In this document: in pieces, positions 3,001 through 6,000 of the stretch | How the letters are laid out: every line of letters starts with the position of its first letter | Numbering within the stretch: position 1 is the first letter of the stretch | Program-made: the position numbers | Assembly: GCA_041498975.1 (NCBI GenBank) | Contig: JBGQJI010000138.1 | Span: 1 to 6,445, forward strand | Source: Candidatus Methylomirabilis sp. | GTDB lineage: Bacteria; Methylomirabilota; Methylomirabilia; Methylomirabilales; Methylomirabilaceae | Length of the DNA: 6,445 bases | Reading direction: 5' to 3'

Positions 3001-6000
3001 CCAGGCTCGTCATGGACGATCGCCCTTCGCCCTCCCACCAGCCGATTGAACAGGGTCGACTTCCCCACATTGGGGCGTCCGACGATCGCCACGATAGGAA
3101 GGGACATCATCGATCAATTTCCTCAGTCACCCGCCCCCTCTGCGCCGGGACCGATTCCTCGAGTCGGTTTCAGGTTGCAGAGAAAGGATTTCAGCGGTAG
3201 GCTGAGATGACGCGTGGTCGCTCGATCGACAGGAGCATCCCGCTGAAGGACCCACGATGAGACTCGCAAACCTCTTTGTCAAGCCGGAAGCGCGGATCCT
3301 CTCCGATCGTGCCCACGCGCCTCAAACACATCGGCGGCGAAAGGTCCTGGAGGTCACAGGAATGCTGTGCGGTCTTTGAGCAGACCGGGTGAGGAGAGCC
3401 CTGGAGGGGCTCGAAGGCGTCACAATGGCCCGAGTTGAGCTGGAAACCGGGCGGGCGGTCGTGGACTACCGCGAAGGGACACTTGTCGACGGCCAAGCGA
3501 TCGAGGCGATTGAGGCCACGGTGGTGCTGCCAGGCCTGCGCCGCTGGCTTGCTATGCTCCCTCGGATGCGGCGGCCCACCGTCAACCGCTGAGACGCTTT
3601 GCGCCCCGCAGAATGTACTCGAGTCCTGAGAAGATCGTCACTCCGGCCGTCACATAGGCCAGCGAGGGCAGGTAAGGCCCCACCCCGCCGGTCACATGGC
3701 CAAGCATCGTCCCCAGCACGGTTGCCAATTGCAATCCGGTTGTGAGCTTTCCCATTCGTGAAACAGAAACCGTCGTCTGGGACGTGGCGATATACACGAC
3801 CAAAAACCCGCCGATCAGGATCAGGTCCCGGCTGAGGATGATGATGAAGAGCCAGCGGGGGATCTCGTGCAGGTAGACCAGGGTCATAAAGGCGGCAAAG
3901 AGGAGCAGCTTATCCGCCAGTGGATCCAGGATCATCCCGAGCTCCGTGCGCTGGGCTCTCGAACGGGCGAAGAACCCGTCCAGGGCATCAGTGATTCCCG
4001 CCAGAAGAAACACCGCCACGGCAAGCCTCCAGAACCTATAGACCAGGAGGATCGAGATCACTGGCGCCGTCAGGATCCTCAAGATCGTGAGCCCATTGGC
4101 GAGATTCACCATCGCCAGGTCCATGCCGCAGCCGCTTCCTCAGACGCTCGATCGCCCGCAGGGGCGCCGCCCTCATCTGGTCTCAACTCCTCCTCTCCCT
4201 TTAACCGGCCTTGTCCTTCGGTCGGTATCCGCCCACGTGGCATTCGGCCAGACGCCTGTCCACCAGAGGCCATGAGAACGTGTCGCACGACCTCTCGCAG
4301 TCGGTCGAAGCCGTGGCCCGTAAGGGCAGAGACGGCGACACGTGGTATCGCGCTATCGGTCCCAAGGAACGACCGCTCGACACGGCCGGGCAGGAGATCT
4401 ACCTTGTTGAGGACCTCGATGATCGGCTTGCTGGAAAGGCCAAGCTCTCCCAGGATCGTGTCTACGGTCCGTTTCTGCTCGATCATCTGGGGGTGACTCG
4501 CGTCGATCAGGTGGAGGAGCAGATCGGCCTCGTCCAGCTCCTCGAGGGTGGCCTTGAACGCCGCGACCAATTGCGGAGGAAGTCGCCGGATGAATCCAAC
4601 CGTGTCGGATAACAGAAACGTGAATCCGTCCGGGGCGGTCACCCGGCGCAGGATGGGATCGAGAGTTACAAAAAGCGCGTCGTCCGTCCGGACGTCTGAG
4701 TGCGTGAGAGCATTGAAGAGGGTTGATTTGCCGGCGTTGGTGTACCCGACCAAGGCAACGATCGGGATAGCATGGCGGCGTCGAGGCCGCCTGAGCAGCG
4801 CGCGATGACGGCGGACCTTCGCGAGCTCGTCCCGGACCTTGGCCATGCGCCGGCGGATAGCACGACGGTCGGTCTCCAGTTGGGTTTCGCCCGGGCCCCG
4901 GGTCCCGATCCCGCCACCCAGGCGGGAGAGGTCGGTCCCCCTCCCCACGAGGCGGGGCAGACGGTAATCGAGCTGGGCCAGTTCGACCTGGAGCTGGCCT
5001 TCCCGGGTCTTCGCTCGCTGAGCGAAGATATCCAGGATCAACGAAGGACGGTCAATGGTTTTCCACCCGGTCAGGTCCTCCAGGCTTCGCTGCTGCGAGC
5101 CCGACAGTTCTTCGTCCACCACCACCAGGTCGATTTTCCCGTACCACCGCTCCTTGATCTCCTGAGCCTTTCCTTTCCCGATCAGATAACGCGGGTCTGG
5201 CGCGTCGCGCTCCTGCAAGATCGTTCCCACCACAGTCGCGCCGGCTGATTCTGCCAGACGACCCAACTCGGACAGAGAGTCCTCGGCCTCCCAGCGCGGG
5301 CTGCGCTTCCTGTGGAGCCCTACCAGCAACGCCCGTTCCCCCCCCTCATTCGACACTGCGCTTACGGTCACTTTCCCCCTTTCGGCTTTCAAGGGCTTCT
5401 CGCCAGGCTCGGGCCCGCGCAAACTGTCGGGAGAGTCCCTCGCCGTCTCCGGCGCTGATCATCGCGCCGAGACGGCCAAGGGCGACCTGAAACCGCTCGA
5501 TCATCTCGAGGATCTTTCGGCGGTTGGCGAGACAGATGTCCCGCCACATGACCGGATGGCTCATGGCCACCCGCGTGAAATCTCTCAGGCCGCCTGCCGC
5601 GAATTCCTGCAGCTCCTCGCCGTCAGTCAGATCGAGGATCGCGCCCATCAGCGCGTAGGCGACGATGTGCGGCAGGTGGCTGACCGCAGCGAAGATCTCG
5701 TCATGTCGGTCCGCGCTCATCTCCAGCACCTCCGACCCGATCGCTTTCCACAGGGCGCGTACCCGTTCAACGGCGGCTGGATCGGTGGATCCGCCTGGGG
5801 TGAGGACGCACTTCGCACCGATAAACAGCTCGGCGGAGGCTGCGCTGGGCCCCGACCGCTCCCGTCCTGCAATTGGATGGCCCGGGACCGCGTTTCCGCT
5901 CGGCAGCAGTCGCTCCATTGCGGTCGCCACCGGCACCTTGACGCTTCCCACGTCCGTGACAACGGCGCCTGGCGCCAGATGGGGGGCGATCCGCTCGATC

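Follow-up and report, generated by a model that had tools for sequence, protein, structure and literature searches.

Gene structure and reading frame

The window analysed here is a stretch of 6,445 nucleotides from Candidatus Methylomirabilis sp. (contig JBGQJI010000138.1), and the feature of interest within it is a single forward-strand frame of 111 codons which contains an in-frame TGA at codon 41 and runs on to a second TGA that overlaps a convergent gene (Table 1). Under translation table 11 this frame appears as two ORFs, one of 40 aa that ends at the first TGA (3257..3379) and one of 67 aa that begins in the same frame from a GTG (3389..3592); the gene caller's 55-aa version of the second piece would start from an ATG at 3425. 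With TGA read as U, the translation gives 111 residues in which a putative selenocysteine (Sec, U) at position 41 falls within the motif GMLCGLU. The initial annotation had taken the two called pieces, g02257 and g02258, to be one gene split at a Sec codon. Our analysis agrees with this, since the match to the heavy-metal-associated (HMA) family crosses the TGA and both of its flanks are constrained.

Table 1. Features of the putative selenoprotein locus (positions count along the window).
Feature	Position	Strand	Details
Candidate Shine-Dalgarno-like motif, AAGGA	3246..3250	+	6 nt before the ATG at 3257; read from the sequence
Whole gene, putative HMA-fold selenoprotein	3257..3592	+	TGA=U reading: 111 codons plus TGA stop
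N-terminal extension, residues 1-30	3257..3346	+	conserved (K/R)L(K/R)NLxVxPxA; no Pfam match
HMA domain, residues 31-87	3347..3517	+	Pfam PF00403, E 5.5e-11
Metal-site loop GMLCGLU, Cys38 and putative Sec41	3359..3379	+	aligns with GMxCxxC of HMA models
In-frame TGA, putative Sec codon 41	3377..3379	+	TGA in this column in 19/19 members of the order
SECIS-like hairpin	3396..3412	+	stem 3396-3402 / 3406-3412, loop GGA 3403-3405, U.G closing pair
C-terminal part, residues 88-111	3518..3589	+	VVLPxLRRxL is conserved; the basic tail beyond it is poorly so
True stop, second TGA	3590..3592	+	inside a convergent gene (CDP-alcohol phosphatidyltransferase), at its 3' end
CDP-alcohol phosphatidyltransferase gene	3582..4124	-	convergent; overlaps the stop of the selenoprotein gene

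The constraint on the two flanks is evident when family members are compared. Between L001 and L003, changes at the first, second and third codon positions number 4/7/17 upstream of the TGA and 5/6/18 downstream, with third-position changes prevailing on both sides, and all 19 members from the order Methylomirabilales conserve the protein sequence of both halves. This is one gene with a conserved TGA. TGA also ends the gene itself in 19/19 of these members, and five neighbouring genes in the window use it as their normal stop codon. A scan of 3050-3750 gave no sigma-70-like promoter, and a terminator scan around the gene gave nothing useful.

Predicted HMA fold and putative metal site

The Pfam HMA match reported in the initial annotation was reproduced exactly: PF00403 scores 43.1 bits over residues 31-87, against a gathering threshold of 24.8 bits, and the match extends across the TGA. 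Taken alone, the 40-aa piece has no Pfam match and the C-terminal piece gives an HMA match of 25.2 bits. The GMxCxxC loop of the family is present as GMLCGLU, in which Sec would replace the second cysteine, and none of the 19 members of the order departs from G35, C38 or the TGA column. Of the beta-alpha-beta-beta-alpha-beta ferredoxin-like fold, the AF2 model of the protein (mean pLDDT 79; 88-94 in the core) contains the elements beta1, alpha1, beta2, beta3 and alpha2, with the last strand not called by DSSP. Its best Foldseek match is CopZ (6ff2_A; 40% identity and an rmsd of 0.9 A over 60 columns). Domains of ATP7B, HMA7 and MerP (1osd_A, 1afi) come next, and the rmsd values of the best solved matches lie between 0.9 and 1.9 A. 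The Pfam match, the model and the structural matches together support the proposal of an HMA fold with a GMxCxxU site.

Outside this core the protein has features of its own. The model places an extra beta-strand at residues 11-19 (mean pLDDT 91 for residues 11-20), within an N-terminal extension in which N5 is invariant in the order alignment and P10 is nearly invariant across phyla. At the other end, V89, L91 and R95 are invariant among the 19 members and a helix is modelled at residues 93-98, with pLDDT below 50 for residues 101-111. The N-terminus, read from the sequence, has no hydrophobic stretch and no signal peptide, and the net charge counted in the same way is approximately +7. The aromatic residue found near the canonical HMA metal site is missing in this Cys-x-x-Sec HMA family. 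The description of the protein as CopZ/MerP-like holds for the fold, but the N-terminal extension and basic C-terminal tail do not fit a mere CopZ or MerP with one residue changed. We regard the family as a distinct HMA subfamily, marked by the lack of a signal peptide, the predicted extra N-terminal strand and the basic C-terminal tail.

A SECIS-like hairpin behind the TGA

The 7-bp hairpin that had been noted 17 nt behind the TGA was recovered at that position, where it lies within the R-A-L-E-G-L codons of helix 1. The SECIS had previously been judged from this one predicted structure; the hairpin is now seen in 19/19 members with a frozen core. RNAalifold gives six pairs in 19/19 sequences, and there are compensatory changes between families: pair 33:47 is G-U, A-U or C-G and pair 32:48 is G-C or C-G. 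Within the core, GCC CTG NNN GGG C, the synonymous sites are identical in all members, synonymous differences being 0.00 at Ala+7, Leu+8 and Gly+10 compared with 0.42-0.72 at other invariant residues; the set used for this comparison was chosen partly by the core itself, and a set of 21 members found by protein shows the same freeze. With three codons frozen, this would be a compact example of a protein helix whose sequence is limited by an RNA signal, and the conservation of A-L-x-G-L could in part reflect constraint on the protein.

The bSECIS model described in PMC13188914 has a stem of 4-16 bp, a loop of 3-9 nt with a G in its first two positions, a distance of 16-37 nt from the UGA and an MFE of -7.5 kcal/mol or lower. 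The present hairpin agrees with it on all four counts, having a stem of 6-7 bp, a spacing of 22-23 nt, an energy of -12.1 kcal/mol and the loop U-GG-A-G. The loop is (U)GGA(G), with (U)GUC(A) as a variant in one family of the order. The folding energy is no better than that of shuffled sequences (z -0.62; 45 of 200 shuffles fold as well). Stability alone is unremarkable, and support for the hairpin comes from its conservation. Covariation is thin, as four of the eight pairs never vary and two change on both sides, a count reached by 494 of 500 shuffles; the covariation score alone stands out (3/500 shuffles). An Rfam scan of 3100-3700 returned no SECIS family and only two matches at the level of chance (E 0.5 and 3.1). 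The selD SECIS of this genome, when set beside the hairpin, showed no informative similarity. A second hairpin enclosing the TGA (3370-3387) was considered and dropped, its register not being conserved in other members.

The genome has the machinery that Sec insertion would need, as the initial annotation had stated: selB (378 bits), selA (595), selD (399, with one TGA inside) and tRNA-Sec (71) all score above their curated cut-offs, and selB is found in 18/19 genomes that carry the gene. From the conserved hairpin, the frozen codons and this machinery, we consider it very likely that the hairpin acts as a SECIS and that Sec is inserted at codon 41.

Distribution of the family

Within the order, the search covered 66 genomes including that of the window itself (G000). 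Besides the window's own copy there were 19 matches at E<=1e-8, of which 18 contain an in-frame TGA (one in 15 cases, two in 3) and one contains none, exactly the counts previously given. The TGA columns, which the initial annotation had not gone through singly, were inspected one at a time: in all 18 full-length homologues, as in the window copy, the TGA occupies one and the same position of the G[M/F]xCxxU motif. Retention of the codon down to approximately 36% identity across three families of the order stands. In the three matches with two TGA codons, the second is the gene's own stop. The TGA-less match, from an unpublished genome (G042), was rejected as an orthologue and is instead an ordinary secreted CxxC MerP-like paralogue. 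Within the genus, the order search again placed the gene in six other genomes and not in 13, and pmoA (PF02461) was found in 0/7 genus carriers (G000 counted) and in 10/13 non-carriers. In this genus the gene is thus seen only where pmoA was not found, a pattern which may be a lineage marker but is not evidence of function. All carriers seen are assemblies that are incomplete or in several contigs, and those with named records are MAGs.

The initial annotation placed the family in Methylomirabilales. Its presence there is upheld, but not its confinement to that order, as 16 further members lie outside it. Their records carry the labels Chloroflexota/Dehalococcoidia or Rokubacteriota, or belong to a 'Deltaproteobacteria' MAG or to unclassified bacteria; two of the 16 belong to the same class as the window's genome, and both have TGA at the Sec column. 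When 185,579 species genomes were scanned with a DNA pattern, 36 matches were returned, 33 of which are members with TGA at the Sec column. When a second pattern was used in which the synonymous sites of the hairpin were left free, all 31 matches were true members and all carry GCCCTGNNNGGGC. The TGA is fixed in one column across protein identities of 33-78% and several phyla.

In public protein collections the family appears mostly as fragments of 57-72 aa, which routine annotation names 'CopZ' or 'hypothetical'. In a profile search of 1.84 billion representatives, multi-HMA proteins dominate the best 150 matches, among which P0041 is the only single-domain, full-length member; no tally of Cys forms can be drawn from that search. 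Within the family, the one protein found with Cys aligned to Sec is P0176 (one Cys form among 51 database matches), which has CGLC at the site and so provides a Sec/Cys pair in support of Sec; all ordinary HMA domains likewise have Cys in this column. P0176 also has Ser in place of an invariant Gly, whose GGG codon forms the 3' arm of the hairpin in other members. On protein sequence alone, the Sec column is occupied by G in P0041 and by W in P0153.

Relationship to known HMA systems and gene context

CopZ/Atx1-type HMA metallochaperones (PF00403) share with this protein the fold core and, where helix 1 begins, a loop of the GMxCxxC type, and they are likewise small, single-domain and without a signal peptide. 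The differences are the Sec predicted in place of the second cysteine, the conserved 30-residue N-terminal part with its predicted strand, and VVLPxLRRxL followed by a basic tail where those proteins have their ...GY/GF end. CopZ is also typically acidic, whereas the Cys-x-x-Sec HMA protein is basic. The CopZ models NF033795, NF033794 and NF047957 score 41.4-44.6 bits against cut-offs of 85-95, and the best NCBIfam match, NF041115 ('UxxU metal-binding (seleno)protein'), reaches 45.1 bits against a cut-off of 95, so that the statement that no curated NCBIfam model covers the protein holds. Other members of the family score 31-43 bits with NF041115 or do not match it.

NF041115, which corresponds to the 'putative mercuric reductase' of selenoprotein catalogues, also describes small stand-alone HMA selenoproteins with Sec in the metal-site motif, but there two Sec are present (UxxU) compared with one (CxxU) in 19/19 members here, and the UxxU proteins of this phylum differ from the present family in their signal-peptide-like N-termini and canonical HMA end. 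In the NF045683 system (17.8 bits against a cut-off of 375) Sec again occurs in an HMA metal-site motif; there it is the first ligand (UxxC) of a domain fused to a membrane transporter, and here it would be the second ligand of a free-standing protein. MerP (TIGR02052) has the HMA fold and the metal-site loop in common with this protein, which lacks a signal peptide and scores 27 bits against that model's cut-off of 92.55. A table in PMC2398784 lists a 'Mercuric transport protein MerP' selenoprotein and gives no motif by which its identity with this family could be judged.

The same phylum also encodes secreted MerP-like HMA selenoproteins (GMVCxxU, GMVUxxC), with CxxU in 12/20 regions examined, which score 70-80 bits with NF041115 and 56-68 bits with MerP. 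Their hairpin is in the same helix 1 codons as that of the present family; they differ from it in having signal peptides and a canonical ...LGF(R/Q)A end, and in lacking the N-terminal extension and basic tail. In a MerT-HMA fusion of this phylum (L111, GMTUGSC), too, a hairpin falls within these A-L-x-G-L codons. The initial annotation had described the family as a CxxU form of HMA selenoproteins, which it is, although the motif is not unique to it. A stand-alone PF00403 CxxU protein has no entry in Table 1 (119 families) of PMC13188914. The literature searched, which included passages of PMC9312934, PMC1976440, PMC2398784, PMC12013277 and the preprint 10.1101/2022.07.06.499078, does not describe a selenoprotein of this stand-alone HMA CxxU kind; members may be present in the supplementary sequences of older surveys. 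What is new here is the range of the family beyond the order, its distinctness as an HMA variant and the occurrence of CxxU in the secreted MerP-like group as well.

When 73 ORFs around 14 loci were compared with Pfam, no neighbour shared between lineages was found. The gene lies beside der and a pgsA-like gene in the window's family and beside groES-groEL in another family, while in Chloroflexota-labelled records its neighbour is a TIM-barrel gene, and at one locus SCO1. With no neighbour conserved across lineages, function has to be read from homology alone.

Interpretation of the locus

We favour, with reasonable though not strong confidence, an account in which the locus is a single expressed gene for a cytosolic HMA-fold selenoprotein of 111 residues that is probably a soft-metal carrier. 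The hairpin, placed inside the helix 1 codons, would recruit SelB and tRNA-Sec so that the UGA at codon 41 is decoded as Sec, and the UGA at codon 112, with no such hairpin behind it, would terminate translation. Cys38 and Sec41 would then be placed like the two cysteines of CopZ, MerP and ATPase HMA domains, and a soft metal ion of the Cu(I) or Hg(II) class may be held between thiolate and selenolate, to be buffered or handed on. On the fold and motif, we put metal binding as the function at an even chance. The partner or substrate may differ from that of CopZ, given the extra predicted strand, the lost ...GY/GF end, the basic tail and the charge of about +7.

Among the alternatives, the CxxU pair could be a redox centre and not a metal carrier. 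The protein would then work as a thiol/selenol oxidoreductase or as a sensor cycling via a selenenylsulfide. In favour of this, a review (PMC13188914) counts CxxU and UxxC among typical redox motifs and notes that most selenoproteins not yet characterised are presumed to act in redox reactions; the aromatic residue that usually stands beside the HMA metal site is absent, and the groESL neighbours would fit a role in stress. Against this, the predicted fold is that of HMA and is not thioredoxin-like, the GMxC loop that positions metal ligands is kept and no oxidoreductase partner is a conserved neighbour, and we judge this reading to be unlikely. Less probable again is a carrier of selenium or sulfur, in which Se would be kept as a Cys-S-Se-Sec species and delivered to SelD or to a cofactor pathway. 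The near-constancy of the Sec form would suit this, as would the very large selenoproteomes reported for these lineages (a review gives 63 predicted selenoprotein genes for a Methylomirabilota MAG), but the gene is not beside selD, selA or selB in the window or at the 14 loci, and most Sec-using genomes of the order do not have it (selB in 58/66, the gene in 19/66).

The remaining alternatives concern the TGA itself. Near-cognate decoding, which would place Trp, Cys or Gly at codon 41 in the ordinary way, draws some support from the W and G seen in two database proteins and from the fact that Sec insertion is a prediction from sequence, yet a hairpin that fits a SECIS at the right distance, the frozen synonymous sites, the full Sec machinery and the use of TGA as a normal stop by the neighbouring genes and by the gene itself make it very improbable. 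The notion that the TGA simply terminates, leaving a pseudogene or two unrelated small ORFs, would match the behaviour of gene callers, which split the frame, and the fragments that fill public collections; it is scarcely credible for a codon that is fixed at such sequence distances and in several phyla between flanks under coding constraint, and the 40-aa piece by itself contains no domain.

If the gene is, as we propose, that of an HMA-fold selenoprotein, it adds a well-supported subfamily to the catalogue of 119 selenoprotein families. Routine annotation splits the gene into fragments, and a curated model would correct many MAGs. The exchange of a selenol for a metal-site thiol in a chaperone fold would also bear on how selenium may tune the affinity and exchange of soft metals. 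More speculatively, and with the balance of probability clearly against it, the family may be a Sec-obligate, basic, N-strand-extended HMA branch present in four or more high-level lineages of uncultured bacteria from groundwater and soil. On that view a single HMA-plus-SECIS cassette arose once and gave rise to cytosolic, secreted and transporter-fused forms, and this branch has a partner or substrate outside the classical copper route from CopZ to CopA. The secreted CxxU, UxxC and UxxU HMA selenoproteins and the MerT-HMA fusion have a hairpin in the same helix 1 codons.

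A gene split at an in-frame TGA

The initial annotation had described two neighbouring gene calls as pieces of one HMA-domain selenoprotein gene, separated by the gene caller at an in-frame TGA, and its coordinates are those of the window, since both ORF pieces and the frame read with TGA as selenocysteine (U) match there. Read in this way, the frame runs unbroken for 111 residues, with U as codon 41 within GMLCGLU, and stops at a second TGA (3590-3592). All figures of the initial annotation were reproduced, including the Pfam HMA match of 43.1 bits over residues 31-87, which spans the TGA; the 40-aa piece alone has no match and the C-terminal piece alone barely exceeds the cut-off (25.2 against 24.8 bits). 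TGA also serves as the stop codon of five neighbouring genes in the window, which makes it an ordinary stop in this Candidatus Methylomirabilis sp. All neighbours lie on the opposite strand, and the 3' end of the gene overlaps that of the convergent CDP-alcohol phosphatidyltransferase gene by 11 nt (3582-3592).

Features of the window and of the predicted protein; neighbouring genes are named from Pfam matches at the syntenic locus L134
Feature	Position	Strand	Remark
Isocitrate dehydrogenase	3..977	-	
der/engA	1791..3110	-	
First ORF piece	3257..3379	+	40 codons, TGA end (table 11)
Second ORF piece, same frame	3389..3592	+	GTG start; caller's 55-aa piece from ATG at 3425
SECIS-like hairpin	3396-3412	+	stem GAGCCCU/GGGGCUC, loop GGA
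CDP-alcohol phosphatidyltransferase	3582..4124	-	
hflX	4106..5422	-	
Prephenate dehydrogenase	5346..6290	-	
Further gene		-	incomplete at window's end
Predicted strands	residues 11-19, 26-34, 55-61, 66-72		AlphaFold2
Predicted helices	residues 39-50, 78-87, 93-98		AlphaFold2

A six-frame search of 66 Methylomirabilales genomes, whose tallies take in the unpublished genome G042, again gave, apart from the window's copy, 19 matches at E<=1e-8: 15 with one in-frame TGA, three with two and one with none. All 18 TGA-bearing homologues were cut out and aligned with the window copy, to which their identity falls from 77% to 33%, and a column-by-column check placed every TGA in the window's TGA column, within G[M/F]xCxxU, so the claim that distant homologues keep it holds. 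Their start codons lie 39-42 codons before the Sec TGA and every gene terminates in another TGA 62-76 codons past it, which explains the three matches with two: the second is the gene's own stop. The match without TGA, a statement that rests on G042, proves to be a paralogue, namely an ordinary CxxC protein of the secreted MerP-like kind that ends in ...AGY. Outside the HMA core, two conserved parts set the family apart from ordinary HMA proteins, which have neither: 30 N-terminal residues with (K/R)L(K/R)NLxVxPxA and, towards the C-terminus, VVLPxLRRxL, after which comes a basic tail. Within the window's family of genomes, third codon positions dominate the differences on both sides of the TGA (4/7/17 by codon position upstream and 5/6/18 downstream between loci L001 and L003), so one and the same frame is under coding selection to either side of it. 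We consider it very likely that 3257..3592 is a real selenoprotein gene that was mis-split.

The hairpin behind the TGA

The hairpin that had been noted behind the TGA as a SECIS was located, and it agrees with the bSECIS model as quoted in section 5 of PMC13188914 (loop of 3-9 nt with G within its first two positions, stem of 4-16 bp, UGA-loop distance of 16-37 nt, energy <= -7.5 kcal/mol). Its stem is 6-7 bp, its UGA-loop distance 22-23 nt and its energy -12.1 kcal/mol, and the loop, U-GG-A-G or, in one family of the order, U-GU-C-A, fits N1-G-[G/U]-N-N2 in both forms.

Covariation lends this hairpin thin support. RNAalifold finds six pairs common to 19/19 sequences. Scored on an eight-pair structure of our own, pairing holds in 82% of cells and falls to 65-71% once the partner is shifted by a single column; G-U, A-U and C-G are all seen at pair 33:47, and G-C and C-G at pair 32:48. 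The covariation score was equalled in only 3 of 500 shuffles, but the count of pairs altered on both sides was equalled in 494 of 500, four pairs being invariant, and the folding energy does not stand out from that of shuffled sequence (z -0.62). The stronger argument for a SECIS comes from frozen synonymous sites. The core GCC CTG NNN GGG C is unchanged in all 19 members from the order and in two class-level members, and when 185,579 species genomes were scanned with a second DNA pattern, in which protein-determined bases were fixed and the synonymous sites of the hairpin left free, all 31 matches were family members and all 31 carried the core. Among pairs with the same residue, codons differ in 42-72% of cases at other invariant residues and in none at the three core residues; this set is partly core-selected, the non-circular basis being the 19 order members, the two class-level members and the second pattern. 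In another hairpin (3370-3387, 6 bp, CGGUCU/AGACCG) the loop contains the Sec TGA; the register of this hairpin is unconserved in other members, so it is probably incidental.

Distribution and Sec machinery

A profile search of 251 phylum genomes (G042, G032, G075, G216 and G217 included) found the full-length family only in the 19 carriers of the order and two class-level relatives, which score 99.6 and 89.5 bits; below these, matches drop to <=62 bits and are generic HMA domains. DNA pattern scans of species-representative genomes gave 36 matches, of which 33 are members and three spurious; both patterns require TGA and are hence blind to Cys forms. The family occurs in Methylomirabilales, as first described, but extends further than was then thought, with 16 of the 33 outside the order: going by record labels, eight are Chloroflexota, Chloroflexi or Dehalococcoidia, one Rokubacteriota, one Deltaproteobacteria and six only 'bacterium'. 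Among the last six, L068 corresponds to G168, the second class-level relative, and L082 carries the Chloroflexota-type sequence.

In a collection of 5.8 billion proteins the profile matched 51 at E<=1e-8, mostly fragments of 57-72 aa, some annotated as 'copper chaperone CopZ' or 'hypothetical protein'. Of three longer ones, P0176 is a true Cys form (CGLC), where Ser stands in place of a Gly that is invariant elsewhere and that supplies, through its GGG codon, the 3' arm of the hairpin. The other two, both full-length, differ at the Sec column, where P0153 has W and P0041 G, which may represent TGA read under another code; P0041 also runs beyond the usual stop, with W there, hinting at such a code or at real codon changes.

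Within the window's genus the gene occurs in 7 of 20 genomes and was never found together with pmoA, which was detected in 10 of the 13 non-carriers but in none of the carriers, whose completeness is 80-94%. As a lineage correlation this fits the proposed restriction to a non-methanotrophic clade. The three non-carriers in which pmoA was not found are 67-83% complete.

The window's own genome has the Sec machinery ascribed to it, with selB (378 bits), selA (595), selD (399) and tRNA-Sec (71) all over curated cut-offs. Its selD (L039, G000:C199:1054-1980) is itself a selenoprotein gene with motif U-A-C-K; its one in-frame TGA is followed, at 10 and 29 nt, by two candidate hairpins. Across the order, with G042 and G032 included, selB is present in 58 of 66 genomes and 18 of 19 carriers, and was not found in carrier G013 (72% complete); the Sec trait is therefore nearly universal, whereas the gene, at 19 of 66, is patchy.

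Predicted structure and possible function

An AlphaFold2 model built on a 30-sequence alignment has a mean pLDDT of 79 (88-94 across residues 11-80) and an unstructured tail. Its best solved match in Foldseek is CopZ (6ff2_A, rmsd 0.9 A over 60 columns, 40% identity), followed by ATP7B and HMA7 domains and MerP, from which the core is predicted to be HMA. In the model the N-terminal strand is an addition to this core, and DSSP does not assign the canonical last strand. Taken as a whole, the analysis confirms the original observation and supports its interpretation as an HMA-fold selenoprotein with a CxxU site.

No neighbour conserved across lineages was found around the family loci, so any assignment of function draws on fold and site. 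The Cys/Sec pair would occupy the site at which Cu(I), Hg(II) and related ions are bound in HMA proteins, and on this footing soft-metal binding or hand-over is the most likely function, with about an even chance of being correct. Redox chemistry at the same pair seems unlikely, and a role in carrying selenium or sulfur considerably more so. The protein lacks a signal peptide, and its net charge is about +7 (20 K+R against 13 D+E, from sequence), whereas a typical CopZ is acidic, so its partner may differ from that of CopZ.

In the window's family the neighbours are der and a pgsA-like gene; a second family has groES-groEL upstream, and three Chloroflexota-labelled loci have a xylose-isomerase-like TIM barrel downstream; one family locus has a MerE-like ORF 2 kb away. 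In a Methylomirabilis-labelled record a SCO1/SenC copper-chaperone-type gene (L143:4006-4797, +) lies directly upstream of a member on the same strand; it is the only copper-related neighbour seen, and a large ABC-ATPase fusion follows. In an unclassified record, a 126-aa ORF beside a member (L148:4401-4778, +) partially matches iodothyronine deiodinase (PF00837, profile positions 121-217) and may be the tail of a further selenoprotein gene split at a TGA.

Relation to known HMA selenoproteins

HMA-related selenoproteins already catalogued comprise UxxC in P-type ATPases, the UxxU 'metal-binding protein' (NF041115) and MerT forms; a table in PMC2398784 lists a 'MerP' selenoprotein without giving its motif there. 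As the initial annotation had it, curated models do not cover the CxxU form: the best NCBIfam model is again NF041115 (45.1 bits against a cut-off of 95), CopZ models reach 41-45 bits against 85-95 and the MerP model 27 against 92.55. Table 1 of PMC13188914 (119 families) has no stand-alone PF00403 CxxU entry, and our literature search found no description of a stand-alone HMA CxxU selenoprotein.

Other proteins, too, combine CxxU with an HMA domain. Twenty TGA-flagged HMA matches, hand-picked from more than 500 phylum profile matches, comprise 12 secreted MerP-like proteins with GMVCxxU, five with GMVUxxC, two with UxxU (GMTUGAU) and one in which no motif was found. The family is an uncatalogued HMA subfamily, one among several Sec-bearing HMA forms in the lineages concerned. 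The second, secreted MerP-like set comprises L149-L166 and L168, from genomes G001, G002, G003, G039, G052, G095, G096, G102, G167, G172, G190, G201, G208, G213, G235 and G248; none of six scanned members reaches any NCBIfam cut-off (NF041115, 70-92 bits against 95). Among the hand-picked matches whose helix reads A-L-E-(G/R)-L, most show a hairpin within the codons of that motif. At L111 (G247:C82, match 2925-3128) a MerT-like membrane protein is fused to an HMA domain with GMTUGSC, in which Sec is the first ligand; its hairpin, GCCCTGGCAGGGC, occupies the same helix 1 codons as in the CxxU family but lies three codons farther from its TGA.
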